A stretch of 63,728 nt of DNA, the filler included. It is 8 parts of 8 records of this genome, joined end to end, with 100 filler letters (N's around TTAATTAATTAA, not from the genome) between each part and the next. Parts side by side here need not be neighbours in the genome. Positions count along the whole stretch, not along the records: positions 1 to 11,290 come from SRR7504441_11623; positions 11,391 to 16,061 come from SRR7504441_11626; positions 16,162 to 21,496 come from SRR7504441_11628; positions 21,597 to 28,948 come from SRR7504441_11630; positions 29,049 to 38,412 come from SRR7504441_11631; positions 38,513 to 50,456 come from SRR7504441_11656; positions 50,557 to 58,972 come from SRR7504441_11668; 1 more part is not named here. One strand, 5' to 3'. The notes beneath the pieces are model-generated. The model had not been told where the DNA came from, ran no database searches, and worked only from the letters and a program-made list of their open reading frames with translations. How positions within the stretch are numbered: the first letter of the stretch is position 1; each line of letters begins with the position of its first letter. Of the stretch, positions 387-58,056 are shown piece by piece. Position numbers and translations under genes: made by a program.

Positions 387-606
387 ACTCGTACGTATAA
401 TTATGTCACCTTGAATCGTGTGCCTCTAGAGCTGAGATAAATGGTGCGCCGTTCATGAGAGATTGGTATATTCTATAGCATTGAATATTTAAAGACACGA
501 ATAATTCTTATTTAAAGACGGGAAATTGCCCTAGCTATACACGGTAAATAATGATCGCTTACATGTAAACATCGCCGTCATAATATCGCTCATTGAGGCT
601 GTGTTC

Positions 607-3266
607 TCAAAAGTCCTTGAAGCTCTCAAACGCCTCGATTATACGCGCCTCCGTTACTCCAGACAAAACCACGGCCTCGATTGTACCGATAAACGGCTTG
701 ATTTGCGTGAAGTACTTGCGACCCGACTGCTTGAATCGAGCAAGCGCCCACTGCACCCAGGCGCCTGCCCACACACTTGAGACTAATGTGCGAGGCTCAT
801 ACGGCCACCTTCAGGCTCGGAGTTCTCCTTGCACTTGGACAGGTGGGTCGAGATCCCTTTGACAAACCCCTCAAATAGCTCCAGAAACGTCTCCTTCAGC
901 ATTCTCAGCGCCTGCTCTCCACACATTCAACCAGACCCAGGCCTGCCTGACCTTCTGATGCAGCTGCGAGGTATGGGCGTGCCATTCCTGGTGCCTATCG
1001 TCGCCTGCGTGCGGGCCGCGCTCCCGCGAGTGCAATTCGGCCTCGAGCTTTGCGGCCATCGAGACGACGTGCACGATTCCGTACTCGAGCAACTCAAACA
1101 AGTGGCTCCGTGTGGCCAGCAGAGGCAGGTTCTCCGAGCTGAGCAAGCTGTGCACCATCGCCTTGGTGTCGAGCACGCCAGCGATCAGCAGATTCGGCAC
1201 AAGCAACAGCGGGGCTTGCGGTGTGTTGGTCCAAAAGCTCAGCATTGCGCCAAACTGCCCCTCCGACTCAACCACCGACATGACCTTTGGGCACCGCAGC
1301 TGTGCGAGCCTCAATCGACTTGAGCAGGGACTTGAGCAGCATCTCGTTCTTGAGGAACCGGCGCGAGCAGATCGACGGGATCCTGTGCGAGCTCTCGAGC
1401 AGGGCGTTCACCACGAGTACAGCGCGGGCCGTGTCGTCACTGCACGCAGCTCAGCACCGTGTGCGCTTTGTGGCGCACCGAGCTGCATAGTGCTGGTCGA
1501 GCAACTCAGTGATCGGCCGCTCGTCCGCTTTCTTCAGCAGCGACTGAAGCTCGGTGAAATTGCCGCCGGCGTCGTCCTCGTCGCACGAGACGGCGGTGGG
1601 CGGCTGTGGCAGGCAGCTCTGTAACGAGCTCGGAATCTTGCCCTCGAACTGCTCATACCCACTCAACCGGATGCACCGCTCCAGCAGCTGGCACGCGGTT
1701 AGCCCGGCCAGGCAGCCGGTGCGCACCTGGGTCACGAACTCCCTGTGCCGAGAGGAAGAGTCGGCCGCCGAATCGTTCTGAAGCATCTCTCCCCACGTGG
1801 TGGCCAGCCTGCACCGAGTGGTTGCCGGGCCCCGCCAGATGGCTTCTCACCCAGAGGCTGCATCGTCGCCCCGCGCCGGCAGGTACCACGGCTTCCAGTT
1901 GAAGTCGAACTGTGAGAGAAACAGCGCGAACCACTCGGTGGTCCGATCAAAGCATTCGACCTCGAGAGAAGGAGAGTCCTCGAAAAGAGCATGCAGGGCC
2001 GCCACAAAGAGCGCCTCGTACTTGGGATCGAGCTTGCAGAGGACCACCGCCACCATGCAGTAGTAGGCGATTGGCCCACTCGAGCGCGGCAATTGGAGCA
2101 GCTCGCCTATCAGAGCATTGACCACGAGTCGTCGCGGGCGGGTTGGAAGCATGGCCAGAGTCCGTGCGCAATCCACGTGGATCAACTCACAACTGACCAG
2201 AATGCCCTGAATCAAGCTGCCCCCAGCGTTAGTCCATGCCCCAACTCCGGCGAGCACCCAGTCACCACGGTGGCCTCGTGCTTGGTCAATTCGAGCTTAT
2301 CGTCCGTGTGGCCCTCCTCTAGAAGAGTCAGAGGCACGCCTCGCAGCCCCGCCAGTTCGGCTTGGGTGGCCGCCGGGATCTCGAGCGGCAGCTCGGCGAC
2401 CCGAAGCGTATGGGCATCGGCCTGCTCAAGCTCCTCCTTGAACTCGCGCTGTGGCCTGCCCCGGCCCCTCACGCGGAACAACTGCCAGCCAACCACCTGC
2501 TGCTCACAGCCGTGGCTACCTGCCAGCTGGCCTCCTGGCAGGCGAGCGCGCAGTCCCACGCCTCCACCAGCCGGTCGTCCGCCTCGACGCCCCGGCCGTC
2601 GGTCCACGCTGCCAGCGCCGACTGCGAGGGCGGCCGGGCTGTGTAGTTGGCCATCGTACTTTCAAGAGCCGACATGAGCCCGCCCAGCTCGCTCGCCAGG
2701 CCCAGCTCGGTGAGCACAGGCCCGATGCTCGGCATGGCCGCGCAGAGCAGCCAGGCGTAGAAGACGCGCACCCCGAGCTCCGGCTCGGGGGCCGTGGTGG
2801 CCGCCTTGATCCGATCCAGCAAGTCAAGCAGCGAGTCCCGACTGAGCGCCCCGGCCGCCACCAGCTCGGTCGCAAACACAAGCAGCGCCTGGCCCGCGCT
2901 CGCCGGGCCGGCCGCAGGGCGTACCTTGCTCCGGGTGCACTGTCCTCTCCGAAGTGCCTCGTCCAGCCGGGTGCCAACCTGATCGACCACGTTGGCCCCA
3001 AAGTGGCCGTTCCGGCGGTTGAGCAGCCCGGCGACGGTGGCGTACACCCCGGCTTTGTGGGGCATGTCCTGCGCCCCCTGGATGCACAGGTCGGCCACCA
3101 AATCCCCGTGACGCTCCATTTCCTCCCGCAGATCGGCCGCGAACGAGCCGATCTTCTCCTCGAGACCCTTGCGCTGGTCCCCGAGCTTGGAGAAGGCCGA
3201 CGCCAACATCAGCAGCTCGTCCTGCCCCCCGCCGTCCATCTCGTCGCGCCCACGCTTGCGATTCAT
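607..3266 (-). CDS. NCBP1: Nuclear cap-binding protein subunit 1 (CBP80), multi-exon
   Basis: Basic N-terminus MNRKRGRDE. MIF4G segment DMPHKAGVYATVAGLLNRRNGHFG; ECFDRTTEWFALFLSQFDFNWKPW; C-terminus WVQWALARFKQ...IIEAFESFKDF*. Short GT-AG introns join the frames. Confidence 0.9.
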
Positions 3267-3389
3267 CTGAAGCTTGCGGCGAGTTCGACCGAGCCTGTGC
3301 CAGTTTCCACCGGACTTCATCAACGGTCTAAGTTTCGATCTGTGCGCCACTGTCAGTGCACCGGGCGCCGGTATGGCTGAGTAGAAGCC

Positions 3390-6300
3390 ATGGGCAGCTA
3401 TGGCTCCGGGTGCTACATGCTTGTGCGCAACTGCCTGGGCGGGATGTGCCACGATTATTACCAAGCGATGTCCTACCTCGTCGCCTGGCTGGTGTCCTCA
3501 GTTCTCATCACCCTGGTGCAGTACAACGGCCGCTGCATCGGCATGCGCAGCTTCGTCGGCTGGGCGCTCAAACGCAGCGCCCCGCCGCCCACATGGGTGG
3601 CCGTGCTTGGCTGGATCGGCACCTGGACGCCAACCCTCCTCCTGATCGGCCTGGTTGTGAGCACCGTGATGAAATCATATAACGACCACTTAAATGACGA
3701 CAACGGGGACTTCTGCTACTCTGGCCCGGTAGTACTGATCTTCCTGCTCATCGTGCTCGAGTGCATCCGTTTGTCCGTCGCTGCCTGGCTGGTCGCTGGC
3801 GGCTGGCCCTGGCCGCTCAGCGCGCAGATGCTGTTGGCGGTGGCCACGTCCAGCTGGTTTGGACTGAGCCTGATCTATGCGCTCGAAGTGAGCTCGACAT
3901 TGCCAGAGAAGCTAGTTCTTGCGCTGAGCCTGACTTACATATTCGTCATAATGTTTTGCCACCTGGTGCTCCGATCAAAGTGCACGAGCCTCGTTGGTTA
4001 TGTGCACGGCCGTTGTGAGCACAAGCCTTTCAGGAATGGGGATCTCGACCGGGCCAGCGGATCGCAGCTGGCGACAGTGCATGGCAATCTGGTTGACACG
4101 TCCAGGAATCAGAACGTGCTTCTGTTTCTGTATGTGCTGCTATGGATCCTGTACATTTCCGCGCACCAGATTAATGCAGTAACTCCAAGGGTCAATACCG
4201 CGTATGTGGTGCCGTGTATGCTCCTCGCTGACACTGCGGCCGTGGTTGTGGCCCTTCAAACAAACTATGGCAAACCGTCACTCCCAGCAGTTCTTCTGGT
4301 CTTCGGACTGCCATTGGTCATGAGGCTCGTAGCTATCCTCAGTGCTGTGTTTACTCAGGATGACGCGCCGTGGCGAAACATACCTGCCTCCAGCTGCCTC
4401 ATCCTCGGCACCGCAAGCGCCTTCATGGGGGCAATGACGACCTACCACAGCATGTCAAATTCGCTATTGTTTAGCGAGCAGAAGCAGCACCTCGCAGCAA
4501 AGCTCGACTGGGAACGCCGCGAAGCATGGGTGAGTGCGCAGTTGAAGTACACCTCGCAGCAGCAATGGAGTGTATCCGGGTGGATGTCCCGCTTGCAAGC
4601 GAAGCTTTGGGGGGATCGTGGGGAATGGGCATCTATGTATGAGTATGGGCAGTTAATGAATTCCGACGGTGAAAATACGTGGTCGGGCCTGACCACCCTG
4701 TATGAGAGTGCCACCAAAGATCTGTGCAAAATCAATCCACTCGACCCAGCACAAGAACCAGCCCGTAAGACTCTTAAGCGAAGCTTGAACAGCATGTTCT
4801 GGAAGATGCAAGGGAAATTGATTTGCCGTCTCTCCTTGGCCATGATCCCGTACTTCATTTTTGTGTTTGCTTCATTAACTTTTGGGTCAACGTTCAACAG
4901 AGACTCGACATATCAGGATATTGTCACCTCATTTTTGGTAGTCGGCGCTGGCTTCATTTTATGCTTTGAAGTCTTCAAAGTTATGATCGACCAATACACT
5001 ATGGCTGCGGTCTATGCAAAAGTGCGGATTGCGCCACGCTTGTTGGAATACTTGGAACAGCCGATCAGGAAGCCCAAAGAATCTGCACCATGGTTAGGTC
5101 AGAGCCGGCTCCCTTCAGCAAGCTGCGACTTCATAGCCGAGCACGTGTGGCAAGAAGACATATGGGATGGCACTGTAGACCAGATCGACAGCATGGCAAG
5201 TGATGTCATCGAGGCAGCCCAACGGCTGAAAATTTCGCAGTGGGAGACAGTCACGTGCATTGCGCACGTGGTGTTTGAACGGACTGCTCGGACAGTGAGT
5301 ACCATACTGAATCAGAGCGTTGGGGACGAGGCGAGTGGCCGCCTATGACTGGTTTGACCACCAGGGGCAGGTTTTCAGGACCGCTGCAGCCACCCTCGGG
5401 CAAGATCTAGATGATGATTATTGCTGGAAGAGTCCTGCAAACGAGAACATTCTTACTACGTCATTGATCGAATGGAAAGAATACCACAAAGAGTGTATCT
5501 GCCCATCTAATGTGAGAAACGCCGCGTTGATGTCCGGTGCGCCATGATGCAGGCTCGTTAATTCTTCACTGACCATCTTGTGCGCAGCTCCACTTCGAAT
5601 ACCAGAGCTTGTGGTGCACTGTAGACCCCCATGCAATGTGAATCTTTCCGGTCAGGTGCAAAGTATACGGCGTCATTATCTGAGCATAGACGGGTTTGAC
5701 TGTTTGGACGATGTGTTGGATGCAGTTACTGTTCAAGGTGTGCAACATCGACCGACGTAGCTCACTGCTGTATGTTCAGGAGTGGTAGTGATTGCGAGGG
5801 CCCTTTGTCTCAAAGCTGACGTGGTCACTTGGCTGAAGAGGCTATCACTAGAACCTCGCATCTTAAACCGACGAACATCTTGCACAACAGAGGAAGGGAT
5901 AGCCTCGCCCCGTGAACCCAGGGCTCCGCTTTTACGGCAAACAAGCTCAGTACCACAGTCGTCCGGAAGGATGGCACGGCTGACTTCAAAGGCTACCTCG
6001 GGCCAATTGGATTCGGGTATTGCTGCCAGCTTTACAATCACAAACGAGTTTCAGAGGGACCTAATCGCAGGACGCGTCCATCTTTTCTCCATACCGTTTC
6101 ACTCCAAATACGGACTCTTGACAACGGCAGCTCAGACCATCACAAATGATGTTTCTAAGTGGCCCAGTGGATTCCGGGAGCGGAGCTGGATGGTTCACTG
6201 TATGTTGCTTCATCAACGTAGGGCACGTCTTCTCAGAGGCCAATTGCCTATCGGAATCATACTGTTTCTAATCGGAGACATGCTACTTACGGCCGTTTGT

Positions 6301-9300
6301 ACTTGCAGCTCTGCAACGCTAGTTGAAATTTTGTATTTGGTGGCAGCTCCTCTCGTGTTTAGCCATGCAATTCTTCTGTCCGACGAGGCGACGTACACCA
6401 AGCCGCTTTTCAGTCGCTCCATGCGTCTGCTCTTCGACTCGACGTCAATGCCGTTCAAGGAGATGTTCCTGACTGACAAGGTGGGCATCATAGCCGAGCT
6501 CGCCATGCCGACCTATACAGGGGCATGCGCCTTCGTGTTGGCGTTCCAGTTATATGGTGAATCTCTATGGGACGGCATGCTTCTACTTGCTGCGACAGCA
6601 ATTCTATACACTTCTCTTTTCCGCTTCATCATGGTTTTGTTTGGTAGCGCAGTAGACGCGTCATACATCAGTCTGGATGGCTACTTCATGATCGGTTACA
6701 TCACAGCAACTGTTGCTGCCGTTGTGGCACTAGTGGTTGATGACTACCAGGTGCTTTTTGTTACTGTGTCTGCGTACTACTACATCGCAGCTTTGGTGTT
6801 ATCGTCATTGTCAGAGTCTCGATTTCTACCAGAGTACTGCAAGTTTTTTAATTTTTTTACACTGGAGCAATATTGGATTTTGTACACATCAATTCAGAGC
6901 AGCTTTGCATTAGCGTGGTACGCTGAGAACACGCGCGACGAAGCGACATTTGTCTGGTATTTTTTGCCTTTACTTGGGGCCCACACTTCCCTCGGCAAGT
7001 TTCTCTACTTCATAGGTGCCTGTGTGTGGCACGAGAAAGACAAGCAGCCTCTAGCTATCCGGACGTATTATCTATTGTCTGCCGTCACCTTCGGGCTGTT
7101 TATGTTGTCTTTGGCCTCACTCGAAGTCATTAACGACTTCAGCGGGATCGGCTGGTACTTCTTCATCAAGTTACTTGAGATCCTGGCAGTACTAGCATTC
7201 CTACTCTTGCTCACAGGTGTGGGTACCCGCAACAGGTATACAACAGGCAGTAGCATCTTTCTGCTTCTGCCAACTGTATACCTATTGAAGGAGGCGGATG
7301 CGGACAACAAGACGCCCATGAAACTCCAGGTAAGCTACTGGACCAGCTTTCTGGTGATCACGATCTGCTCCTGTATGTTTTTATGGGGTGCATTTGCATT
7401 GCTGGTGCCTCAGGACAACGTTCAAGAAGCATATCACCTGGCGGATTACAGCTTGACATTTGCCGGTAGCCTTTAGTTCTTTCTTTCTGCCTGCCCTCCG
7501 TGGCTAACTACATCTCATGCAGGGATAGTTTCGACGTCTATGGCAATCGTGCTCCTCTGGTTATCGCCAATCATCATGGATATACTGCTTTCGATGAAAA
7601 TGAACGCCCTTCATCGACAATTGACGCAGGCAGTGCCTTGCCCGCTGCTGCAAGAGAGCAGAATAGACAGCTTGGCTCGGGAGATCTGGCAAGCATCTGG
7701 CCTGGAACTTCAAGACTGCATTGAACTCGGCTCATATATTGCTTCAAGCCTCTGTCGGCAGGTCCTCTGCAAATGCCTTCTCAAGAATGATCCGAGTCGC
7801 AAGGTCGACACCAGTGCATTATCTGGCATCAAATTTACCCGAGAATATTCCGCAAAGGTGCACTATTATTTATCTCACTCCCAACCACCAGCGAGTCTCG
7901 CTGAATCGCCTTTCTTCGATAATTGTAACCCGTTTGAGCTATGCGACCCGACCAAGCCGTTTGGATTCCGGCGCTGTGATGCTGCAAGCTGCACTCATGA
8001 AATGGGCATTTGTCCCCAGATAACCAGCAAGGAACCCCCTCCACGGTTCCGGTACAGATACGATAACCTGCGCGAAGGGGCCCCCTCTTTTCAGCAGATA
8101 GTTCTCAACGGAACAAATCGGTGGAGGCCGGCTGACTCAGATCAAGAGGTGCTATTTGATGAAGGCGATGAAATTGATCTCGGGTGGCAACCTCTACTGC
8201 GCTCTTTTGAATCGCATGGTGCAGGTACAACTTTTATGTTGCCGACCCAACTTTTGAGCCCTTGTCGAACGAGGTGAATTTGGTACAATTCTGCGAATTC
8301 TTTAAGACCCAGTATCTGGACATTGGTTGCCCATGCTTTGACGATGATCTGTGAGCACCTGTCTGCCATGCGTTCCTGACTTGACCTGTTTGTACACAGG
8401 CTTGCGAGTATCCGCGGTGAGGCATTCGCATCTATTCTGCCCGAAGCTAGCCGAGGCTGCCCATTATTTCGGGAACGTCTTGCGGGCTTGGACCCGTTTT
8501 ACGCGCAGCATGATCTGCCCGAGTCAACCAAGGATGGTCCTCTGCGCAATGAAAATGAGCTTGAAGTGGGATGCGGGACGGCGCCAGACCGGTCCACTGG
8601 CAGCGACGAGCAGCACACGATGTCTGGCTTCGCACAGGATTGCATTCGAGCGCATTCTGCATTAATCACCGCCCTAGATCACATTGAGCAGGATCAGAAG
8701 CTGCAAGTGTACATGGTGCTGCGCACCATTTTCGCAGCAGGGAACTTGCTTACCACGGAAGCTCGGGTTTTAGAAAGCATTCAGGGAACAGTGTCTTTCA
8801 GGGAGCAGTTCCTCGGCAGCGAAGATCTTCATACAGATTCTTCGCGCTATATACATACATGGAGCGAAGATCTTCGTCGGCAGCGTAGTGTTTCTGCCCG
8901 TGATTTCACAAAATACCTATTCGATAGTTCTAGCGCTACTACTACCGAGCTCAAGAATGAACGCAGGTGCCGCACGGTTTAGGGGCTGGTTCACCTAGAG
9001 TGATGCTCTTTATTGCAGGTTGACTTACCCTAACTGCATCTTCGGGACCCAAGCGCTAGACTCGGCCGCCGATCTGACTTCGGATTTGGGGAGGGAATCG
9101 TGTAAGTCCAAGGAGGACGCGATAGGCAGGCTGCTTGGCCATGAAATTAATGAGCTGCCGTGGTGGGCACAGCTTGTCGCGCTGACCGAAGAATGTGCGA
9201 AGTTGCTCTGGCAGGTTGCGCTGCTGGCCAAGGTGACGTATCCAACCGATCATGAGCCCGAAACAATAGTGACCATGGCCCAATGGGCCCACATCTTTGC

Positions 9301-10953
9301 CATCCATGTTGAGGACGACCCATTACCGGACAACGTCCGTCGCATCTACAGTCCTGCTCTGGGTGATGCCTTCTCAGTAATCGATCTCTGGGAAATGGCA
9401 AATGGCCTCGCACGTGAACTGAAGGAGATTCCAATGGATGATCGGGATTTCGTTGCGTCTTTCACGAAGGTCTTCCTGTTTCATTTCCATCCCATGCTCT
9501 ACGTTGGGTTTGCGGGGACTTGTGCCCACCGAAAGCGTGCCTTCAAGAGCGAGTTGAGGAGAAATCCGTCGTTTCGTATGCTCGTTGATGTTATCGCTGA
9601 AAGGGGTGCCAAGTACGATGCGAGTCAATATGCAGCCTCTGCGGACAACTTTTCACAGGTTGTGTGGCTTCCACATTTGCATTGTCACTGAGCCTTTGTA
9701 GGTGGCGCTACTGCCGACCAAGCTTGCACCGCTGTTAATGGAGAGTATGGAAGTGTACGCCAGGGGGCGCCCTCACCTCGGCCCCGCCGCGCTGCTCGAG
9801 GCAGCACTCCGCGTGGCGGCTATTTGCACTTACAAAATGGTATTCGAAAGAATATGGGGGAGCGAGACTATCACTTCTGCGGTGGCAGCAACGTGGCTGG
9901 CTGAATTGATGGAGTCCACGTGGCGTCGGTCTCATCCGGACAAAGATATCCCTAGTCTGGCTGAAGAGATATGCCGCAACGCGTGGGACGAGCCGGAAAC
10001 CACGTGGGAGATATGTCGCAACACGCAAGTAAATCGAGAAAACTTCCACAAGTTGCACGAGCGGATCGTAGAACAGATGCTTGGCCTGGAGAGGGACTAC
10101 TGTACACTGGGGCGCCTCTGTGGTTGTGTGAGTGGAGGCGAGAGTGATATCATGGTCTGGCGGTGCTGGCAGAGCACAACGCAGATTGTGATCGACTGGC
10201 TGAGGGACACGGAGGGGCCGAATTTTCCCGATGGGCTGTCGGATATGGATCCCGAACTCCACCAACTCTGGGAGTATGCGCAGTGGTGGCACGCTGCATT
10301 GACACAACGCTGGGAATTGTCGCTTCACCACGACTTGCCGTCATTGCAGTGGTGCAACCACTTAGACTTTTGTCGGTGCCCAACTGAATCCTGCTGTTTG
10401 ACAGGCAGCACCGGGTGCACGTCCAAGCGAGCGAAGGATTTGCAATGAGCGACTTTGCTGAAGCGGCTGAGCTCACCGCAAAGCTGGTCACTCAGCTATC
10501 TGACGCTTCACATCCCGCTGCCCAGCAACTACTCCCACATTTGCCAGGCAAGTCATTTACTTGTATTACTTTGATCCTCATTCCGGGGATTCAGGTGCAG
10601 CGGAACACATTTCAGGTTTAAAGGAATACTTCCTCATGCCTAAAGGCATGAAACAGGATTATCAAGCCTTGTATATGTGTGGAACCGCACTCTTACGAGT
10701 TAGTCGGCTCGCCAATATGGGAATGGCTATCGCGGAGAATCGCACCGCAGAGCTTGATGAAGACTTCGAATTGTCCATCCGTAGAGAGGAAAAGATTGCT
10801 GTGGCATTCCGCGAACAGCTCTATTCTTGCGTACGTAAGGCGGTCGAGTTAGATCCGTGGGCAATTCGATGCTGCGATTGTGGAGGGACTGATGGAAGGC
10901 CCGAGCGAATCATGAAATTGCTCGAACAGAGCTTGATGGGTGGTGTTACTTAA
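3390..10953 (+). CDS. Very large (~2,350 aa) multi-pass membrane protein of unknown family, ~11 exons
   Basis: ORFs at 3390, 5320, 5578, 5782, 7540, 8488, 9020, 9702, 10415 and 10561 join in frame through short introns, e.g. 8184-8224, 9659-9701 and GC-AG 10548-10594. About 24 hydrophobic segments lie in the first ~1,400 aa. Confidence 0.75.
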
Positions 10954-11003
10954 TTATTATAAAATTCATATAATTTTATGACTTTAATGTTTCATCAGAA
11001 TCA

Positions 11004-12501: not shown

Positions 12502-12647
12502 CGCTTTTAGAGCGCTTTCCTGTTATGGGACTCATAAACCAGGATTTCAAGTAATATTAGTTGAGGCGTCATTACATGTAAAGAATAAAACGAAAAAACC
12601 AGTGAATACTACTAATAATAACTGAACACGTACTATTACGTTATTCT

Positions 12648-16161: not shown

Positions 16162-16307
16162 ATTGGAGCGTGATAGGGTTGCAACAAGTTTTTTATCTTC
16201 CTCGCCCAGGACAGCAGCCGAGCCAGCGCCGGCTGCGCACCTGATGTGAGCACCGGGGTCCAGCCGCGGATTTCTTTTTTTTTTCGGGCTCGTAACCGAC
16301 ACTCGCA

Positions 16308-17034
16308 ATGGGGGATGGAGCTCAGTCGGCCGCGTCCAAGTGAGTTCCGCGCGGCCCGGCCGATGGTCCAGATCGCGGGCTTGGTGATCGGCGGCTTGCA
16401 GGGACATCCAGCGCCTCTACACCGACCTGCGCAACCTGAACCCGCAGCGGGCCCAGATCTTCGCCCGGGAGGACACCTTGCTATGCAAGAACATGGGCAT
16501 CTCGCACGTCCAGGCACCCGGCCCCCGGCCCGCGCCGCGCTGACCGGCCGTGCTCAGGGGAATCGGCTCGCCTCGCGCGGCGGGTTTGACACCGGTCTGG
16601 CCCACCTTGATCACTACCGGGGGCGCGATCCTGTGAGAGCATTCGGCAGCTCCAAGCTGGAGCACGATGTGATGGTCCGCGGCTGGCGACCGCACCGGCT
16701 GACCGGCCGCAGGTTAAGGTGGCCGGCACCCCGGTCTCGGACCGCCGCCGCTCGGAGATGCTCCGTTATCTCAACGCGTACACGCACATGCCGGCGGTGG
16801 GCGACCGGGTGGGCCGGTCAGCTGAGCGGGCGGCAGGCCACCACGGTGGAGATGCTCCACTCGCTCCGCAAGGTGCACGCCGACACCGACCGGCTGCTCA
16901 GGGACCGGGCTCGCGTGGACACGCTCCATCAGCCGGAGAACAGGGCAGCGGTGAGCACGCAAGTCGAGTCTGCCCGGTACACACCTTCACGGACCCCAAT
17001 CCCTGGACACCACCGCTACTTCACCACCGGCTGA
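16308..17034 (+). CDS. Hypothetical protein (~180 aa, 5 exons)
   Basis: MGDGAQSAASKDIQRLYTDLRNL...HHRYFTTG* reads open after removing four introns, including GC-AG 16514-16557. Confidence 0.55.
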
Positions 17035-17247
17035 GCCCCCGAGCTGCTAGCGGTCGGTGAGTTGAGCTCGAGCCCCAGCTGGTCTGTTGTTTGATCTCTC
17101 TTCGGGATCCGATTGCAACTAGTTGTATTGTCTAGTACAGAGGTGTAATTGTACTCGTACGCTCGGAGCTATTAATTACATTTTATTTCGTGTTTCCGAG
17201 GGCCGAAATCAAGTTCGAGCGCTATCCTATAGACTTGCTCATGGGTG

Positions 17248-18342
17248 TCAGCTTTTGAGCAACTTGAGCAATCCGACCAACTCAGAGGCCGAAGGCCGCT
17301 CAGCTGGCTCGGCTTGGGTCGCCAAGCTCAGCACATGCCTCAGCCGGGGCCAACGCACCTGCACATCAAACGGTGATTATCCGACCGGACCAGGGCCGCA
17401 CCTGCTGCAGCAGCTCCTCGACTGAGTCAATCCCTCGGCACGCAGCCGCCCCCCCGGCCGCAGCCTCACAGAGCAACATCCCGAGATCAAACACGTCATC
17501 GGCCGTCTCGAGCCCGGGATCCGGGTCCGAGCCATCCCAGAGCAGCTTGACTTGCCCGTCGAGCACCGAATCCGCCCGGCTGAGCAGCACTCGCCGCGAG
17601 CTCAGCTGCCCATGCACCTACCCACAGCTCAATCGCGGCTCAGCGAGTGGACAAACCAGCCCGCGCAGGTGCAAGCTGGTGAGGGCCCGGGCGAGTGGGA
17701 GCGCCAGGGCGAGCATCTGGATCAGGCTCAGCTGCTGGAGGCTTTGGTCCAGCACAGAGCCCAGGTCGGCCGCCATCGGCTCGAACAGCAGCACGCAGCT
17801 ATCCGACGAGGACAAGGCCGCCCCAATAAACAGGACCAGCCCCGGGTGTTTTGCGCTCGCCAGCCGGGTGGCCATCTGGTAAGCCTGCTCGAGTGCCTCG
17901 GGGCTGGCTGGCTGCTTGAGCACCCGGGCTGCAACTGTGGTTTGGAGCCAGCTGGCGAGCACAGTCCTGCTGCCCTCAGCGGCCGGCGTCCCTTGTTGTC
18001 CGGCAGGTCCGCATCGGCGCCGCTCCCGAGCAGCAGCCTGGCCATGTTGAGCAGCCCCTGCCCGCAGACGAAGGCCAGCGCGGTCCGGCCGGTGCTGGTC
18101 TTGCTGTCCACCTCCGCCCCGGCCTCCAGCAGCAGCCGGCCCAGCTCCCAGTGCCCGCCCAGCCCGGCGCAGTGCAGCGGCCCGGTCCCGGCCCCGTCGC
18201 GGTAGTTCGGGTCGGCTCCCGCGTGCAGGCAGCCGGTCGCCGCCTCTGCATCCCCGTCCCGCGCCGCCAGCCAGAGCCCCAGGCTCGGGTCGTCCGCCCC
18301 ACTCTCGCCCTCGTACCGCGCCGCAGGGATCCCGCTGTCCAT
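17248..18342 (-). CDS. Ankyrin-repeat plus TKL-like pseudokinase
   Basis: Three ankyrin repeats (GTGPLHCAG, GRTALAFVC, GADADLPDNKG). Degenerate kinase motifs KHPGLVLFIGA, HGQLSSRRVLL, DVFDLGMLLCE, PAERPSASEL. Confidence 0.7.
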
Positions 18343-18432
18343 TTTGGGGCACGTAACGGATTCATCAGTTCGCTTCCGGGCGTCCGCAACGAGTGCAGAC
18401 GAGCAACTCAGAGCAAGCGCGTCCAGCAACCA

Positions 18433-20146
18433 ATGGTTTCTTATGAAGGCGAGTGGTCGGCGGGGCAGCGGGAGGAGGGCGGGCTGGACTTTGGGTGGCT
18501 GCTCGGGGAGTCGGCCGACCTGTTCCGGGCCGAGCACTTTGAGAAGCAGATGCTCCACCTCAAGCGGCAGCAGCCCGACTTCTACCAACCACTCTTCGGG
18601 CTCTACGACATCGAGGCGCTCGCCCGCCGGTGCGGCCCGGTTCGTCGGCCGGGAGCGGGGGCAGCTGCATCGAGAACGACGGCGAGTTCATGCTCAAGAA
18701 GGACGGACACGACCTCCGCCGGAGCGAGCGGTCGCCGCCGGACTGCTTCGCCGGCTACCTGATGGGTGGCTCGTACGTGATCAACCACGCCGAGCTTTAC
18801 CACACCGAGCTGGCCCGGCTGTGCTGCGAGCTGCGCGAGCAGCTGATCCACGTGTACGCCAACCTTTACCTCACCCCGCCCCGCTCGCAGGCGCCGCCGG
18901 CCGCGGGGTGGGCTCAGGCCGGTGCAGGCGGTCAAGGCGCACTCGGACGACCAGGACGTGATCATCCTGCAGATCGCCGGCGCCAAGGCCCGCCGGCTGG
19001 CCGGGCCCGGCTGAGCGGCTGGGCAGAGTTGGACGGTGTATGAGCCACCAGTGCTGATGCCATACACTCATGAAATGGTCGGCAAGACCGGCCCAGAGCG
19101 GGCTGTGACAGAGGAGATGAGAGGCAAGCAAGTGGAGGAGCTCGAGATGTGCGCAGGTCGGGCGGGCCGGGCGGCGGGTGCGATGGCCGGGCAGGCGACC
19201 TGCTCTACCTGCCGCGAGGCTGGCTGCACGAGGCAAAGACTGGTTCAAACCAGCTGTCGCTGCACCTGACGCTGACCGTGCCATCGCACGACTTCACCTG
19301 GGCCAAGTTCTGCGGGCACGCCATCTCCGAGCTGCTGATGGAGCAAACTGGCCCTCTCCGGAACATGGTCAGGAGCTGCTGGGGCGAGCGTGAGCGTAGG
19401 CAGGTGCCGGCTGCAGTGGCGATGGGCGGAGAAGATTCTTCTGAGCAGAGCGCCGCGATGATCGCTCAGGTGGGCCGGGCGAGCTGTCACAGGCCAGCCC
19501 GTTGCAGGTGCTGGAAGCCGCCAAGCAAGGCCTTTCTCTCGAGACGGCCCAGCGACACTTTGGGCGCAAGATGCAGTCGCACGCTCGGCCACAGGAGCTC
19601 GTGGCCTCCACAGATTTCCAACTGCTGCCCAGACAAATCCGGCCAGACAGTCAGGTGCGACTCAAGCGAGGGATGGCAATGAGCTTTGAAGACGATCCTG
19701 ACAACAAAACCCAGCTGTGCAAGATGGTAGTCAGGCACAAAGGCAGGTCGCTTGAGCAGACTGTGGACCGGACGCACATCACGATCTACCACGCAATCGC
19801 AGCCACTAAAGGTGCCCGCGCTGCGGCAAACCATGAATTTGTGGCTCCCACCAGGCCAAAGTTTTAGTGCGAGCGAACTGCCGGGAGATGGCTACTCGCA
19901 GGTCTGCGTGCTTAAGTTGCTGATCAGGCAAGAGGTGCGCCACGCTTGCGTCGCTGCTCGGTTAGCTTGCTTGGGCAGGTAATAGAGCTGTTTGAATCCG
20001 CCAGTATCAGCGGCTCTGACGGCGGCAAAGGCGGCAACAAGGGCGGCGGCAAGGGCGGCGGCAAGGGTGGCCCCGGGGGCAAAGGATCCGCGATGCCAAT
20101 GATTAAGGAAGAAGAGGAAGATGGAGAGCTGCTGTATTCGGGTTAA
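18433..20146 (+). CDS. JmjC/Cupin_4 oxygenase (NO66/MINA53/RoxA-like)
   Basis: After splicing: YANLYLTPPRSQAVKAHSDDQDVIILQIAGAKSWTVYEP, GDLLYLPRGWLHEA, SLHLTL. HxD...H metal triad intact. Confidence 0.88.
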
Positions 20147-20520
20147 GATGCTGCACTAATCTTAAGCTCGTGCGGTACAAGGATCCACGGGTGGTTCATG
20201 CTTGATTTGGAAATTCTTGAATGTAAGCCTACCTGTACAATACCACAGTATGTGCACCAAGTCGTGTTGTCATGTAGCTCATTTGTAGCTCATTTGCGAG
20301 TACGGAAACTCAATTAATTGAGAGAAACAATCTAACCAGCCGCTAAACTAAAGCATAATTATATCTATCTATCTAGCGGTCTACTAGTCGGTATGTTCAA
20401 AATTAAAATTACAAGTAAGTACGATATAAGCACGCAGGAATCTTAGCAATTCTAGAATAGTTGCAGGTGTTCAGTCTGGTTGTGTGTCATGCCGTGTGTG
20501 GCTAGCTTGTGGACTCATGG

Positions 20521-21596: not shown

Positions 21597-21597
21597 C

Positions 21598-23920: not shown

Positions 23921-24024
23921 GATTGCGTCTCCGGCTCGGTAGCGCTCCCGGAGCCGACAGTTAATTTAATATATAGGATACATCCAACATTGCTTCAGTT
24001 TTTTTCTCCTCGAAACCCGAGGAG

Positions 24025-25240: not shown

Positions 25241-25391
25241 ACGTCTGGAGCTCCTGACTACGGCCAGAGCGCAAGAGGAGCGACAATACGAGTACGAAGC
25301 TAATTTAAATTTAAAGTTTGATAGATTGCCTAGCATGAATTCCGTCACTCAAGTAGAAACCTCAAATGCCCTTTATTACAACCAGGCGCAG

Positions 25392-26383: not shown

Positions 26384-26385
26384 CA

Positions 26386-27322: not shown

Positions 27323-27652
27323 ATCAGGCTGAATCGACGTACGCTCGTCCAACGGAGTCGCTAACTAAAACCCACGTAAAGTGCCCGCACCGTTGTACTA
27401 GTAGAATATAGATTATTGCGTGATTGGTGGCTAGCCTGGTGTGATTTCTCAGGCAGCCAGGGTCATGATTGTGTCCGAGGGTCCGAGGCAAACACTTGTA
27501 AGATAATTATGATAATCTAACACCTAAGTCCTTTTAGTTCAGGCGGAATCAAACCGCTAAACCACCTATCCGCTAGACAACCTGTGTCAACTTTCCGAGG
27601 ACCAGCCAAATTCTTGAACAATCTAGCCATGATCACGAGCACCCGAGTCGCA

Positions 27653-28725: not shown

Positions 28726-28828
28726 GTTGTTCTCTCTGGCTTAGTGGTGCTTCCGCTGCCTGGATGCTCTCCGCGCCCGAGCCTGACCAACGGAAAACTG
28801 GCCAGGGAGCTGATACCCCAGACAAGCC

Positions 28829-28948
28829 ATGAGGCGGTCCGGGCTCTGGGCCGGGGGCGGGCTTCTGGTCGCGCTGGCTGTGGTCACCGCGTGGAGCCTG
28901 CTCAGCCTGCTCACCGTCCCCAGCACGCTGCCCAGCACGCTGCCCAGC
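28829..28948 (+). CDS. 5' fragment of a probable type II membrane or secreted protein
   Basis: MRRSGLWAGGGLLVALAVVTAWSLLSLL followed by PSTL repeats, cut by the contig end. Confidence 0.4.
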
Positions 28949-35835: not shown

Positions 35836-36828
<993 letters not shown>

Positions 36829-38512: not shown

Positions 38513-38771
38513 TCGGTCCGGCCACCGAACGGTAGGACTGCTACTCTCACGTGCACGGGAGAATGAATGAGACAACTTAGAGAGAACTCGAAGCCCGCTG
38601 TAAGCACCGCCGAAGGGAAGCCTTTAGTACTAATACATATACATGTACATTGAATAAATCATTTTTTACTAGTAACATTGAATCTAATCGTTAAAACTAC
38701 TTCTCAGTTGTTGACGCCGGCTTGCACGTTGGTCCTTGGAAAGACCTGTGGCTCGCAATCTAGAAAATCGT

Positions 38772-46694: not shown

Positions 46695-46820
46695 AGCAGC
46701 CGCCCGACCAGGCACCGCAAGACGGATAAACCTACATGAGTAGACGCACCTTATAATAATAGACTTGAATAGTTGCCCAACGTAAGTACTGTACCACAAG
46801 AGTATCGGAGTATACGTCTA

Positions 46821-46844
46821 TACTCGTACGAGTACGTACGAGTA
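46821..46844. promoter_or_regulatory. Cluster of three TACNNGTA palindromes in a convergent 3' spacer; function unknown
   Basis: tactcgtacgagtacgtacgagta; the same motif recurs in nine other 3' spacers. Confidence 0.5.
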
Positions 46845-46979
46845 CTACCAGTGCTGCGGCCCACCACGAAAGCCGGGAACAATCGAGCTAAATGATCGCT
46901 TTATATACATATGAACAAAATGCGCATTCCGTGCCGGGGTCGTGCTACACACTCGCAACACTCGTGGTAGCCCTTCCTG

Positions 46980-50556: not shown

Positions 50557-50620
50557 CCCCCCCCCCCCCGCCGAGTATTTACTCATATTTCAAACATTTA
50601 TATACATATACTCGCCGCAC

Positions 50621-50779: not shown

Positions 50780-50821
50780 CTTGATAAGAAAAGTCCGTTG
50801 TAAACGCCTCGTCCGGACGCA

Positions 50822-51863
50822 ATGGGAGCCACCTTATGCTCGGCCAGCGAGGAGGTCAAGGACAACCCGTCGGCGGCCGGCCGGTTCGCGGACCCGTGGT
50901 GGCGCCAATTCGACCAGCCGACCGCCGGCTACCGCGATTCTTCGGGCTTCGTGAACCGGTTGCCGCTTCGGCTGGAGTCTAAGGAGCTGATCCTGTGGGG
51001 GTTGGTGGACGCGGGCAAAATGTGGCGGGAGTTCGAGGGGGAGCAGTTCCAGCCGATCCTGCTCGACGGCAAGGCGGTGGTCACTGTCTGGTTCAACAAC
51101 TTCACCGACACCGATTGTGGCGGCGGTGCGGCCTCCCCCATAGCGGTGGAACTGACTGCGGCCGGCAGCTTACCTCGAGACCTGGTACAACACGTTTGTC
51201 ACAAAGAGCAGCGGCCCGCAGCTCAACCTGGAGATGTCCGAGGCCGGGCCGGCCGCCGTGGCCGCCCACCCGGACGCCCAGAGCTTCCTGCTCCGAGTGC
51301 TCTGCGGGGATGCCCCGGGCAACCCGGGGGCGGCTCTGAAGGCGATCACTGGGGGGCGGGAGATGTTCGGATTCCCCAAGCACCCGGTGCCGGCCGAGAT
51401 CTCGCTCGAGTATAAGGAGCCCGGGCTTGTATTCGAATGCTCGCACCTGGGCCAGCTGGCAGTCAAGTTGAGCTGCGTGCTTCCTGAGGCCGTCGAGGCC
51501 GCCGCAACGATTCAGGTGGATCTGCCCGAGTCGGCCCCGGACGCGCAGATCGGCGGGCCGGTGCACGGCGGCACCCACAAGGGCCACAACGGCGCGCTGC
51601 AGAGTTTTTACAAGACTTCAGTCAAGTGCAGCCAGACACTGGCGCCGTGGTGCGCCGAAACGGACAAACTCGAGCTGGGTCAAGCCGAGCACTACCGGCC
51701 GCTCAGCCGTTGGGATTTCGTCCCGGTGCTCAAGGCGCAGTCGAGCGACTTTAAGATCTGCGCGCACAAGCCTTCTGGCTGGATCAGCGGTAAGGAGGCG
51801 GGCGAGGCAGTCCAGGGCCACGAGAGCAGGCTCGTGAGCGGAGAGATGGCCGGAGCGCTGTAA
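50822..51863 (+). CDS. Acetoacetate-decarboxylase-like fold protein
   Basis: GGREMFGFPKHP matches the ADC-family GRExxGxPK motif; one 43-nt intron restores DCGGAYLETWY. Confidence 0.65.
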
Positions 51864-52015
51864 GCCGGCTCAACGCGCATTTCATTTGTGTGCGGACCAA
51901 TGGAGCGCCGCCCTAGGCCTTGGTGCATATTAGGATGCCGTATACGAGTATCACTAAACAACTGTCGAGTACGTACTCGTATAACATTAGCGCATGTGAT
52001 CAGACCGATTTATTT

Positions 52016-52654: not shown

Positions 52655-52725
52655 CGGGGTCTTGGTGCGCCAACGGAAGAAGATCAGCTGCAGCCCTTCG
52701 CCCAGTTTGCCTCGAGAACTGCGGC

Positions 52726-53893: not shown

Positions 53894-54283
53894 GGACGCT
53901 TCGCAAGAGTTTGAGCCCATACTCCAGTTGTTTGTGTTGCTCTTTCTCCTTCCTGGCCTTCACTGCCTCTACCTGAAGGTATATTATATTGAAATGCGCA
54001 CCACAGAAGAATCAACCTGCTCGTTTAGTTAGAGCCATGTAGAGGTCGCTCTGACGCAAAAAAAGTTGGTTCGGAACCCGTCAGCAATGCGGAAGCAAAG
54101 AGGGCAACGACGAGATGAGGTTATCTACGGATGATTGTTGAATGTCGGATTCAGAAGATCTAGAGGACTTCGGTGTACATACTTGTCTGTGAGTATTTTA
54201 AAGCTGTAATTTATCATGCTCGTCGCATCTCATCTAGGCCGGTACTAGGCCGGGACTCTAATGCTGTTGAACACTGTGACAAT

Positions 54284-55398
54284 CTAATTTATACTTGTAT
54301 CCCCTAGATTTGTGTCTGCAACAATCGCAACAATCTTGTCGGCACACATTTTTATGAACCGCTGAGCATAATCTTGTGGGTTGATCGCAGACGAGCTCTT
54401 TGCAAACAACGCACTGGCAAAGCCCTGAGCAATCTTTGATGGGCTAAACTCAGTAGCGGTGTCAATGATACTTAGATAGCACTCGAATCCCGCGCCCGAC
54501 CGGACGACACAATGCCCGCAGCGCCACTCAATTGACTTTGTTTCGCCACCCTCAATTGACACATTGCCACCCTCAACTGACTTGGTTTCGCTATACGTCG
54601 GCAGGATGCCAACCAATAAAGAGTAGTCCATCACGCCGGGGTAGCCAGGATGGCGCGTGTCCATCGCCTGCAGCCGGGCCACATCCCTTTGAAGCGCCTC
54701 CTGCCGCACCAGTCACACGCGCACGCTGCGCAGCTTACCAGCACTGCTCTCTGAGCTTGCTCAGGCAGATCGATCGCCAGATCCTCCGCCTCCACGTCCT
54801 TGAGTGGAGTGGACGGGGTCCGTTTCAAAGGCGGGACCGAGCGACCCGCCGTGTGCCCTTTCAGGTCGAAAACATGCGGGCGTTCCGCCCGGTCGGAACG
54901 CAGTCCGTTGGTGAGCAGTGCGAGGTGCGCGGCTCGCTCGCCACACCGCACGGTCACCAGCGCCAGCTGTTGCATCAGCAGCGTCCTGCCCCGACTGGCC
55001 TCCAGGTGCTCGATCGCCCCCGCCAGGTTTCGGTCCCATACCGCAGCCTCGGAGCTCCCGACCTCCTTAATCAGCGCCAAAGCTGACCCGTCAGACACCC
55101 CTCCGAATCGCCCGAACAGGCAACGGCTCCGGCCCTTTGATGGCTTGGCGACCAGCCCCGCCTGCAGCTGTGCTCGCAGCGCCTCCGTGTCCACAGCCAG
55201 CTGCTGCCGGATCCAGGCCCGTCCGAGGGCCCCGCGCTCGTCCACCTCGCAGCCGCCCGAGGGCAGGCTGTGGGTCACGGCGGCGGCAAGCTCTGCTGGA
55301 TCTGGCGGGCCGGACAGCGCGGGCCGCTCCAGCAGCAGGAGCATCGCCTCCCGCGCCGGGGCCAGCCACCACACCGCCTCGGCCTGCGAAGATTCCAT
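54284..55398 (-). CDS. Divergent phosphatidylinositol-phosphate kinase (PIP5K family)
   Basis: GRSRCLF, LIKEV, FDLKG, LKD, MDYSLLVGI, SIID, SAINPQDYAQRF; one intron. Confidence 0.85.
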
Positions 55399-55419
55399 CG
55401 CAGCCTCCACTCCAACGGC

Positions 55420-57759
55420 ATGGGGCGGCTGTGGCTGCTCGGGCTGGTCGCGGCGTGTCACGGGGCCCCGGCTGACGTGGTCTGGACCACGCCCACCGCG
55501 CGCGGCATCCAGGGCAACTACGGCTCGATGCCAGTGGGCAACGGCCGGCAGGGCGCCAATGTGTACGCCGAGGAGAGTGGAGCCATCACGATCACCCTCT
55601 CGCACGTGGACGCGCTGGATGAGAACGCGATCCTCTCCAAGGTCGGGCGGCTGGTGCTCACGCCCCGGGCAGCCCAGGGTCTGCAGTTCGAGTCGATTTC
55701 GTACCATAATCAAAACGTGACTGTCATTGCAAAGTTGGGCGCCGTCACCGCCCGAATCTGGATTGACGCCGACAGGCCCGTGCTCCGAGCGGAGACGTGT
55801 GGCGCCGAGCACACCGTCCAGCTGCGGCAGGTGCTGTGGCGGAATGGGAGCAGCGCTGGGCCGAACGAGCACGGCACTTACTGCAACGCGTCTGCCGTGA
55901 TCATCCACCCGGATACTTTGGCCAACGTGGGTGACAACTCGTCTCTGGCGTGGTACCACTGGAACGACCCGCGATGGACCGGCTCGTTCGAACGGGATCT
56001 GGTGGCACAGGGAATGCCCAAATCGGCCAAGGCCCTGCCGGCAAATCCGATGGCCAATTTGACATTTGGCGGTGTGGCGACACTGAGCCGACCCGCTCGC
56101 CGGATTGACCCAGTCACTCTGGTAACGAGTGAGGCCAGTAGCTGCAACACTCTGAGCGTGGCTGTCGATGTCCAGTACAGCACTAGAGAAGGCACGGAGC
56201 ACTTCTTGGCAGAGCTCAAAGCGCGGAGCAATCAGCCTGCCGACACCACCGCCCACAATCAAGTCTGGAATGACTTCTTCGCCGCCTCAGACATCACAGT
56301 CAACCCGAGTTCCCGCCCGAACGACACGGCCAGGGCCGCGCTGGCCGCGAATGTGACCTTCATGGATCGGCTGCAGCGGGCGATGCTCCACCTCAATAGT
56401 GGCGGTCGGGTCTCTGCAGTCAAATTCAACGACTTTGGCATCTTTTCGGTCGGGGACGAAAACCCCGATGGGCGGGTCTGGGGCGCGTGCCAGTGGTTTC
56501 AAAACATTCGCCTGCCGTACTACCACATGCTGGCGTCCGGGAGCCCGGATGACATGAAGTCGCTATTTGAATTCTATAAACGCATCCTCCCGGTCTCGAT
56601 GGCCCGGGTGAGCGAATGGTACAACGAGTCGGGAGCTTTCTTCCCTGAGACGGCCACACAGGCAGGAGTTTACGCATCGGGCGGTCTGGGTTGGGGCTGC
56701 GTGCCAGCGGCGCCCCACCTCTCCTCGAACTCGTTCATACGGTATCACAGGGAGGGCGGGCTGGAGCTGAGCCTCATGGCACTTGATTGGTACGACCACA
56801 CGCAGGACGCCGCATACTTTGATGCCACACTGTTGCCGCAGATCAAAGCGTACGTTGCGTATTACGCCGAGCATTTCAACCCCGCCGGGGCTTTGGAGAT
56901 TTACCCTGCGCAGGCACTCGAAACCTGGCAGTGTCCGGATGTTCCAGCCAGCAAGGCCCAGTGTGTGACTAACCCGATGCCAGAGGTAGCGGGGCTGCAT
57001 GCAGTGCTCCCGCGTCTGCTCGCTCTCGACCTGAACACCTCGCTAGTTCCAGAGGCCACTGTAGCCTCTTGGAGGTCGCTGCTGGCCAGACTGCCACCAT
57101 TACCATCCACACCGGGAGATGGCAGTGTGCCTGCTGTGCTGACGGCCGGATCCATGCTGCCACCCAAGACATCGAATGCTGAGAATGCGGAGCTCTATGT
57201 AAGCAGCCTGTCTAGCTTAGCTGTCGGCTTGATTTGGTGTGTTGTCCAGGCGGTGCATCCGTATCGAATGATCGGCATCCGTGCAAACACGACACTTGGG
57301 ATCGCCACTTATCGTGCGAGGAGGTTCCATGGGGACACGGGCTGGTCTCAGGACTTCATGGACGCTGCATTACTCGGGCTCGGCAACGAGGCGGCCGATC
57401 TGGCGGCGTCGCGCTCCATTCGTGCTCCTTACTCAGCAGTGCGGTTTCCTGCTTTTCAAGACGGCATAGGGGCTGGTGGTGCAATCACGGATCACCCTGG
57501 GGTCACCACCGCGGGTCTTCGGTATATGCTGGTCCAGAGCCGGATTGCGGGCTTAGACGAGAACGCCGTCATAGTATTGCCTGCGTGGCCATGCGAGGAT
57601 TGGGCCGTGAGCTTCAAGTTGCATGCACCTCAAGCTACTGTCATAGAAGGCAACTACGACGGTAACGGGACACTCTCCCTCTTCAAGGTAACTCCAGAGG
57701 CGAGGAGGAAGGACATGAGTTTCGGAAGCTGCATAAAGAGGGTGGTGACCGCTAGGTGA
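55420..57759 (+). CDS. Secreted GH95-like/DUF5703 glycoside hydrolase
   Basis: Signal peptide, SMPVGNG, WFQNIRLPY, GAFFPET, PAQALETW, ENAELY|AVHPYR (51-nt in-frame intron 57199-57249), GWSQD, LPAWP..W.VSFKLHAP. Confidence 0.75.
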   Translation: MGRLWLLGLVAACHGAPADVVWTTPTARGIQGNYGSMPVGNGRQGANVYAEESGAITITLSHVDALDENAILSKVGRLVLTPRAAQGLQFESISYHNQNVTVIAKLGAVTARIWIDADRPVLRAETCGAEHTVQLRQVLWRNGSSAGPNEHGTYCNASAVIIHPDTLANVGDNSSLAWYHWNDPRWTGSFERDLVAQGMPKSAKALPANPMANLTFGGVATLSRPARRIDPVTLVTSEASSCNTLSVAVDVQYSTREGTEHFLAELKARSNQPADTTAHNQVWNDFFAASDITVNPSSRPNDTARAALAANVTFMDRLQRAMLHLNSGGRVSAVKFNDFGIFSVGDENPDGRVWGACQWFQNIRLPYYHMLASGSPDDMKSLFEFYKRILPVSMARVSEWYNESGAFFPETATQAGVYASGGLGWGCVPAAPHLSSNSFIRYHREGGLELSLMALDWYDHTQDAAYFDATLLPQIKAYVAYYAEHFNPAGALEIYPAQALETWQCPDVPASKAQCVTNPMPEVAGLHAVLPRLLALDLNTSLVPEATVASWRSLLARLPPLPSTPGDGSVPAVLTAGSMLPPKTSNAENAELYVSSLSSLAVGLIWCVVQAVHPYRMIGIRANTTLGIATYRARRFHGDTGWSQDFMDAALLGLGNEAADLAASRSIRAPYSAVRFPAFQDGIGAGGAITDHPGVTTAGLRYMLVQSRIAGLDENAVIVLPAWPCEDWAVSFKLHAPQATVIEGNYDGNGTLSLFKVTPEARRKDMSFGSCIKRVVTAR

Positions 57760-58056
57760 CTGCGTGATTACACGTTAATTACACGTACACTACAAGGACT
57801 AGTGAATTGATTGTACGTGAATGTAACGTGAATAACAACATAGTTACAGTAAACATGATGGCAAATTAGAACTTAAAACAATTGCGTCATTACATGTATT
57901 AGATCTATACTCGTACTCCTAAAGCGTGTATTAACAATTGCAGAGAAGACATGAATGTAGCCATTGTATCAAAAGGCCCTGGCTAGCTCCTTCGCTTGGC
58001 TAGCTGCCTGCGGGTAGATGAGGAGCTAGGCTAACTCGAAAACCAAGCTGGCTCCT

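Follow-up and report, generated by a model that had tools for sequence, protein, structure and literature searches.

How do two converging genes end their transcripts when only a short gap separates their stop codons? To our knowledge, yeast is the only case in which the stopping of RNA polymerase II (Pol II) between converging genes of a compact genome, across gaps of 150-400 bp, has been worked out in detail. The question is raised here by a stretch of eight contigs from an uncultured marine protist, unrelated to yeast, which were joined by N44-TTAATTAATTAA-N44 linkers and analysed as a whole (63,728 bases, hereafter the window). This protist seems to use an 8-letter palindrome of its own, TACNNGTA, built as TAC-N2-GTA, at 10 of the 12 such gaps in the window. 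The word is tied to tail-to-tail junctions and is placed symmetrically to both genes.

Enrichment of the palindrome in convergent spacers

The window contains 20 occurrences of TACNNGTA, compared with 3.02 +/- 1.71 in 100 dinucleotide shuffles, none of which attained 20 (maximum 8). An earlier sequence-only reading of this DNA had proposed the palindrome as a mark of AT-rich spacers at gene 3′ ends, and had suggested a dinucleotide-shuffled background as the means of checking its excess; within the window that excess is evident. A pattern count found every one of the 17 positions it listed to be exact, on six contigs and in 10 spacers totalling 2,420 bp, as it had stated, and revealed three further sites, at 10558, 22365 and 54292.

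The 12 convergent spacers, with a total of 2,860 bp, hold 17 sites, whereas the remaining 60,252 bp hold 3. Since the motif had been picked post hoc, all 448 gapped palindromes (64 trinucleotides combined with gaps of 0-6) were scored in these spacers against a second-order Markov model trained on the same spacers. TAC-N2-GTA took rank 1 of the 448, with 17 sites observed and 1.49 expected (z 11.6), compared with a top z of 8.1 in 400 simulated sets. Occupancy gave the same picture, as 10 of the 12 spacers carry at least one site while 1.36 would be expected and 7 was the maximum in 1000 simulations. The enrichment in convergent spacers first noticed by eye in the sequence is in this way confirmed for the window.

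It is confined to one spacing and to one pair of half-sites. In an earlier, slightly wider spacer set (3,454 bp, 18 sites), other spacings of TAC and GTA were found at expectation or not enriched, with 3 vs 1.43 for N0, 2 vs 1.46 for N1, 1 vs 1.36 for N3 and 2 vs 1.35 for N4, leaving N2 as the only enriched one. Likewise, the transition variants TAT..ATA and TAC..ATA/TAT..GTA were at expectation in the 12 convergent spacers.

Gene models were built from open reading frames (ORFs), Pfam matches and two introns proven by RNA. The contigs carry eukaryotic genes, for an adaptin, a 2313-aa ankyrin-calpain protein, U1-70K, PPR, HECT, RING, La, PH and EF-hand proteins, and further for a P-type ATPase, PIP5K and alpha-galactosidase (Pfam). 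The convergent spacers are bounded by the stop codons of the flanking ORFs, and for most of them at least one flanking gene has a Pfam C-terminal domain adjoining the stop. The spacers and the sites outside them are as follows.

376..606, convergent spacer 1: TTACATGTAA, site 560-567, giving TGTAA on both strands; + ORF ending at 375 or 308 (weak support), - ORF 607-810, part of a MIF4G gene
10954..11003, convergent spacer 2: no copy of the motif; 50 bp at 28% GC
12502..12647, convergent spacer 3: TTACATGTAA in central position, site 12573-12580, giving TGTAA on both strands; La-domain ORF (+) ending at 12501, PH-domain ORF (-) with its stop at 12648
17035..17365, convergent spacer 4: TACTCGTA at 17152-17159; TGTAA at 17144 (+) and 17176 (-); ankyrin gene on the - strand
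20147..20520, convergent spacer 5: TACCTGTA at 20230-20237 and TACAAGTA at 20410-20417; JmjC gene (+), RING gene (-)
25241..25391, convergent spacer 6: TACGAGTA at 25287-25294; RRM ORF (+) ending at 25240, - ORF 25392-26282 with no Pfam match
27323..27516, convergent spacer 7: TACTAGTA at 27396-27403; U1-70K gene on the - strand
38513..38771, 3′ spacer of the 2313-aa ankyrin-calpain gene (-): TACATGTA at 38640-38647 and TACTAGTA at 38667-38674; cut by the contig end, left neighbour unseen
46695..46979, convergent spacer 9: TACTCGTA at 46821, TACGAGTA at 46827 and TACGAGTA at 46837, central; EF-hand ORF (+), NADAR ORF (-)
51864..52015, convergent spacer 10: inverted pair of TACGAGTA at 51943-51950 and TACTCGTA at 51974-51981; + gene with a proven 43-nt intron, GNAT gene (-)
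53894..54283, convergent spacer 11: no motif inside; LRR gene (+), PIP5K gene (-)
54292..54299, site of TACNNGTA nearest to spacer 11: in the last codons of the PIP5K ORF
57760..58056, convergent spacer 12: TACACGTA at 57780, TACATGTA at 57891 and TACTCGTA at 57908; DUF5703 gene (+, 55141-57759), C-terminus of the P-type ATPase (-)
10558..10565, TACTTGTA outside spacers: in a candidate intron of 43-47 nt, where excising 10548-10594 or 10552-10594 yields an open frame of 153-172 codons
22365..22372, TACATGTA outside spacers: inside a 421-aa EF-hand ORF (-)

Distribution by gene arrangement

For comparison, nine divergent gaps (3,157 bp, 65% GC) and six head-to-tail, or tandem, spacers (2,746 bp, 51% GC) were assembled, both sets being small and partly approximate; in the tandem set, 22864-23110 is perhaps no true spacer and 5349-5760 is uncertain. 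Not one TACNNGTA was found in the nine divergent promoter gaps, in agreement with the sequence-only reading, and none in the six tandem spacers. Per region, the occupancy of 10/12 in convergent spacers differs from 0/9 in divergent gaps with a Fisher P of 0.0002 and from 0/6 in tandem spacers with P of 0.0015. The strand-symmetric position between converging genes proposed earlier is upheld by this distribution, as well as by the equal use of both orientations of the non-palindromic form (4:4). Regarding the motif as a mark of gene 3′ ends, the proposal stands for convergent junctions and fails for 3′ ends in general, the tandem spacers being empty.

AT-richness does not account for the enrichment, as AT-rich runs elsewhere are nearly devoid of sites. 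AT-rich runs of convergent spacers carry 15 sites in 1,743 bp, while those elsewhere carry 2 sites in 1,568 bp, where 13.5 would be expected at the convergent density. In the AT-rich cores of tandem spacers there were 0 sites in 519 bp, compared with 4.5 expected (Poisson P 0.012, uncorrected for clustering). Within convergent spacers, the site clusters lie near the middle, at a relative position of 0.33-0.64 in 8 of 9, and within or beside the AT-rich core, while the first 60 nt past the stops have about 50% GC.

The strands of the genes alternate almost strictly, as on contig 7 (50557-58972), which reads - + - + - + -, and also on 16162-21496 and 21597-28948. Tiny divergent promoter gaps consequently alternate with convergent 3′ spacers, and head-to-tail pairs are rare except on contig 5.

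Anatomy of the motif

The centres of the 17 sites are those originally listed, namely GA/TC in eight, AT in four, TA in two, and CT, AA and AC in one each. Their description as variable does not hold to the same degree, as two 8-mers are preferred. In an unbiased k-mer count, TACGAGTA/TACTCGTA had 8 copies in 5 spacers (0.2 expected) and none in the rest of the window, and TACATGTA had 4 copies in 4 spacers (0.11 expected) and 1 elsewhere. On the + strand the non-palindromic TACGAGTA and TACTCGTA occur four times each. The consensus can be written as D-TAC-NN-GTA-H, with outer flanks that avoid G and with C as the commonest base, creating GTAC. The half-sites read TGTA in 11 of 34 cases, and most of them read CGTA or AGTA.

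Copy number differs among the spacers. Five have one copy each, while pairs or triplets 6-31 bp apart are found in three (38640/38667, 46821/27/37 and 51943/74). Spacer 12 has a close pair (57891/57908, 17 bp) with a third site at 57780, and the two sites of spacer 5 are 180 bp apart. The cluster at 46821-46846 includes a perfect 14-bp palindrome, TACTCGTACGAGTA.

Several other candidates for the nature of these sequences were tried and rejected. A general hairpin is not supported by the z of eight cores folded as RNA and compared with shuffled sequence (-1.12, -1.88, -2.30, +1.23, -0.53, +1.04, +0.88 and +0.42), of which 5 lie above -1. A dispersed repeat or miniature inverted-repeat transposable element was dismissed as no interspersed repeat family extends over the sites, whose flanks are unrelated. 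A known RNA gene was dismissed too, as the window gave no Rfam match and no tRNA.

Transcript evidence

Four metatranscriptome runs contained only 5-8% of the sampled words of contig 7, and 13 of their contigs were aligned, one of them reaching a 3′ spacer. This contig, which comes from a poly(A)-selected library, spans 50924-51124 and 51168-51962 and lacks the 43-nt GT..AG intron between them, and must therefore derive from RNA. Both the stop codon 51861-51863 and the TACGAGTA copy at 51943-51950 are within it, which shows that transcription carries the motif into the 3′ end region of at least one mRNA. The contig ends at 51962, with no loose end, 12 nt past this first copy and 12 nt before the inverted copy at 51974, which makes one weak data point since an assembled contig cannot prove a 3′ end. 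The TGTAA at 51859-51863, which overlaps the TAA stop of this expressed + gene, does not set the 3′ end, as the RNA contig extends 99 nt past it. Strand skew around the motif gave no usable 3′ untranslated region (UTR) skew.

Two introns of the window are proven by RNA contigs, one at 51125-51167 (+, 43 nt) and one at 54700-54737 (-, 38 nt). Both have a high GC content and GT..AG ends, and in each a CTGAC/GTGAC box is found close to the 3′ end.

Comparison with known end signals

According to two reports on yeast, the palindromic UAUAUA, with its variants UACAUA/UAUGUA, is the central two-way poly(A) signal of the ~120-bp termination zones of convergent genes (bioRxiv 10.1101/2022.11.02.514956), and the efficiency element has the consensus UAYRUA (PMC6420913). 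The yeast element resembles the one studied here in being a short palindrome with TA at both ends, located in an AT-rich zone common to convergent genes, readable from both strands and thus saving space in a compact genome. The two differ in several respects. The word of the window spans eight positions, TAC-NN-GTA, and TAYRTA (TATATA, TACATA, TATGTA, TACGTA) is not enriched; the yeast element is used at tandem genes as well, but none of the 6 tandem spacers of the window (a small sample) is occupied. The yeast element lies some tens of nt upstream of cleavage on both strands; the one RNA contig end seen here, on a single strand, is 12 nt past 51943-51950. By analogy, the yeast bidirectional poly(A) signal may be regarded as the closest precedent for TACNNGTA.

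Other known systems share single traits with the palindrome. Upstream elements of the UGUA type include the UGUA that CFIm binds in animals and, in green algae, the near-upstream element UGUAA, and they have in common with our motif a G-U-A core in the 3′ UTR, with TTACATGTAA at 560 and 12573 providing TGTAA on both strands. Unlike them, the motif has TGTA in only 11 of 34 half-sites and TACGAGTA as its commonest word. Furthermore, DNA-bound general regulatory factors such as yeast Reb1 cause roadblock termination of Pol II, and Reb1 sites, which are not known to be palindromic, are located mostly in promoters. A double-stranded site of such a kind would stop the polymerase about 10-15 nt upstream, which resembles the RNA contig end 12 nt before 51974; in contrast to Reb1 sites, the sites studied here are dyads, are found at tail-to-tail junctions only, and their binding protein is putative. 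In Mimivirus, transcript 3′ ends follow a hairpin rule, and intrinsic hairpin terminators are known as well. The likeness consists in palindromic DNA between genes at transcript ends, usable from both strands, and the difference in a word of only 8 bp that forms no general stable hairpin.

A literature search for TACNNGTA, UACNNGUA and GTACNNGTAC returned no paper on them, the three 8-mers being met, among the papers listed, only inside primers or oligonucleotides, and a search on bidirectional terminators turned up no example of such a palindromic two-way signal in a protist. The novelty lies in the lineage, in the word and in its confinement to convergent junctions; the principle is already known from yeast.

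The same words in other contigs

A scan of metagenome contigs with TACTCGTACGAGTA gave at least 117 loci. Among the matches listed, 63 seeds lie in loci of at least 2,500 bp, of which long ORFs hold 30 and contig edges 12, tandem positions 9, and convergent and divergent positions 6 each; such matches are mostly due to chance, given the 30 of 63 seeds (among the matches listed) inside long ORFs. About a dozen eukaryote-like contigs, again among the matches listed, carry further copies. Clusters are flanked by converging genes with Pfam support in L017 (a carboxypeptidase on the + strand and the small chain of ribonucleotide reductase on the - strand) and in L048 (a WW/FG-GAP protein on the + strand and glycosyltransferase 61 on the - strand); they lie upstream of genes in L007, L034 and L042 (UGGT), and in L016 as a GTAC-rich tract (770-1140) beside CCCTAAA-type telomere repeats.

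In 19 loci chosen among the matches listed for their extra copies, N1 spacing was counted 121 times and N2 spacing 237 times (80 from L044), with tracts in any type of intergenic gap. Their grammar differs from that of the window and gives no clear support for a 3′-end role. These contigs were given little weight, because they were picked via the motif and their relation to the window is not established; they leave room for a DNA-level or simple-sequence origin.

Tracts rich in GTAC and hundreds of bases long occur in L007 (4841-6317) and over the whole of L012 and L044, with words such as GTACTCGTAC, GTACAGTAC and CGGTAC, and several contigs end inside such tracts. L044 has 80 TACNNGTA in 3.7 kb. 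In viral contigs the same pattern gave 36 scattered loci with no clustering, consistent with chance. The DUF5703 protein (55141-57759) had 13 pattern matches in metagenome contigs, with 0 confirmed relatives.

Possible roles of the palindrome

The reading we tentatively favour, at somewhat short of an even chance, is that TACNNGTA is a shared two-way transcript-end element, read as RNA by the 3′-end machinery. Because the word is palindromic, both converging transcripts bear the same U-A-C-N-N-G-U-A in their 3′ UTRs. As an upstream element, this sequence could direct cleavage and polyadenylation and hence termination, so that both mRNAs would end in one small zone and would avoid running into the opposite coding region. 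We counted in its favour the concentration of 17 sites in 10 of the 12 convergent spacers, their absence from divergent gaps and tandem spacers, the central position of the clusters in or beside the AT-rich core, the spliced RNA contig that stops 12 nt past a copy, the precedent of the yeast two-way poly(A) signal of convergent genes, and the tendency of gene ends without a sense TGTAA to bear a TACGAGTA-type word (spacers 6, 9 and 10; a post hoc observation). If true across the genome, such an element would provide a simple gene-end marker and a better annotation of the lineage, would represent a second independent palindromic two-way end signal, suggesting convergent evolution under genome compaction, and would make it possible to ask cleanly whether signals of this kind are recognised in the RNA or in the DNA. 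As to that choice, the balance tips slightly towards RNA.

Several observations weigh against reading in the form of RNA at transcript ends. The motif is missing from all 6 tandem 3′ spacers, although a general poly(A) signal would be needed there too. A strict dyad at one spacing is the classical mark of a dimeric protein binding double-stranded DNA, not of an RNA-binding protein, and the GA/TC centre is non-palindromic, yet both orientations are used 4:4. The end of the RNA contig at 51962, the sole end seen, fits a roadblock upstream of 51974 equally well. Finally, in the 12 convergent spacers the yeast word TAYRTA is not enriched (7 vs 5.55, P 0.33), and TGTAA is enriched only weakly (17 vs 10.3, P 0.026).

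The first three of these observations would suit a homodimeric DNA-binding protein on the TAC-N2-GTA dyad in a nucleosome-poor core, where it could serve as a two-way Pol II roadblock, a boundary or an insulator; an origin, a cohesin site or some other chromatin mark would be less likely. We consider this role possible, with a good deal of doubt. It would explain why the identical inverted half-sites occur at N2 spacing only, why the non-palindromic form is equally frequent in both orientations (4:4), why two or three copies form homotypic clusters within 6-31 bp, and why the RNA contig ends 12 nt upstream of the copy at 51974. The restriction to convergent junctions (0/6 tandem and 0/9 divergent regions occupied) would follow as well, since a factor at the downstream promoter could serve head-to-tail junctions, which would not need the site. 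Clusters of the same words in other eukaryote-like contigs, in the convergent gaps of L017 and L048 and also in gaps that precede genes (L007, L034, L042) and next to a telomere (L016), point in the same direction, although these contigs were chosen via the motif, are of no established relation to the window, and have both N1 and N2 in common use. The binding protein is itself only putative, the centre is constrained (GA/TC in 8 of 17 sites), and we are not aware of any other genome that devotes a special site to nearly all of its convergent junctions, which counts against it. That the protist genome marks almost every tail-to-tail junction with a dyad site, at which a dimer stops Pol II from both sides, is a claim we would rather doubt than accept; if true, it would amount to a junction code across the genome, specific to convergent pairs.

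Two further readings, neither with a role in end formation, were considered. The words could be a neutral by-product, that is, GTAC-rich cryptic simple sequence that slippage of short palindromes has built up where the DNA is least constrained, namely in the convergent spacers. The long GTAC-rich tracts of the same words in other uncultured eukaryotes (L007 4841-6317, L012 and L044) and the resemblance of the cluster 46821-46846 to imperfect hexamer repeats agree with such an origin, which is nevertheless unlikely: 10 of the 17 sites are single copies with unrelated flanks, enrichment is seen at spacing 2 only, the 3′ halves of tandem spacers should be equally free and yet are without sites, and AT-rich runs elsewhere carry 2 sites for 13.5 expected. 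Less probable still is a post-transcriptional 3′ UTR element (for instance a PUF/Pumilio-type UGUA) acting on mRNA stability or localisation and not on end formation. The motif does lie in a 3′ UTR, as the RNA contig 50924-51962 demonstrates, and TGTA is present in 11 of 34 half-sites. Nevertheless, most half-sites read CGTA or AGTA, the adjoining genes have unrelated functions (La, RING, U1-70K, EF-hand, GNAT, ATPase), and such an element would give no reason for a palindrome or for convergent specificity. The two-way transcript-end element read as RNA remains the reading we prefer.

Other words and features of the window

As the main signal, TGTAA is weakly supported: it is slightly enriched in convergent spacers and not enriched across the whole window (54 vs 47). 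All 3 of the clear tandem spacers on contig 5 have one sense TGTAA. In 3′ spacers TTTAAAG/CTTTAAA is enriched (4 vs 0.35, P 0.001), with examples at 25305-25318, 489-495, 512-518 and 54188-54194, and on the - strand in the 31460s; it may be an A-rich positioning element. TAAAG was present in all five tandem 3′ spacers inspected. The word YAACGGM was counted 37 times in the window, compared with 26.

A single TAG (7474-7476) parts the same-frame ORFs 5761-7476 and 7477-8277, and a third ORF in the same frame starts from 8380; the TAG may reflect an intron containing the stop, read-through, or an assembly error. Homopolymers of G or C at contig ends (1-14, 38390-38412 and 50557-50569), as well as a G11 inside contig 4 (25193-25203), are probably sequencing or assembly artefacts. 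Lastly, the stop codon of the P-type ATPase (58057) is bracketed by a 45-nt inverted repeat, 58005-58049/58069-58113, whose arms are 96% complementary and 19 nt apart, and which, judged from its sequence, would fold into a long hairpin right where the coding region ends.

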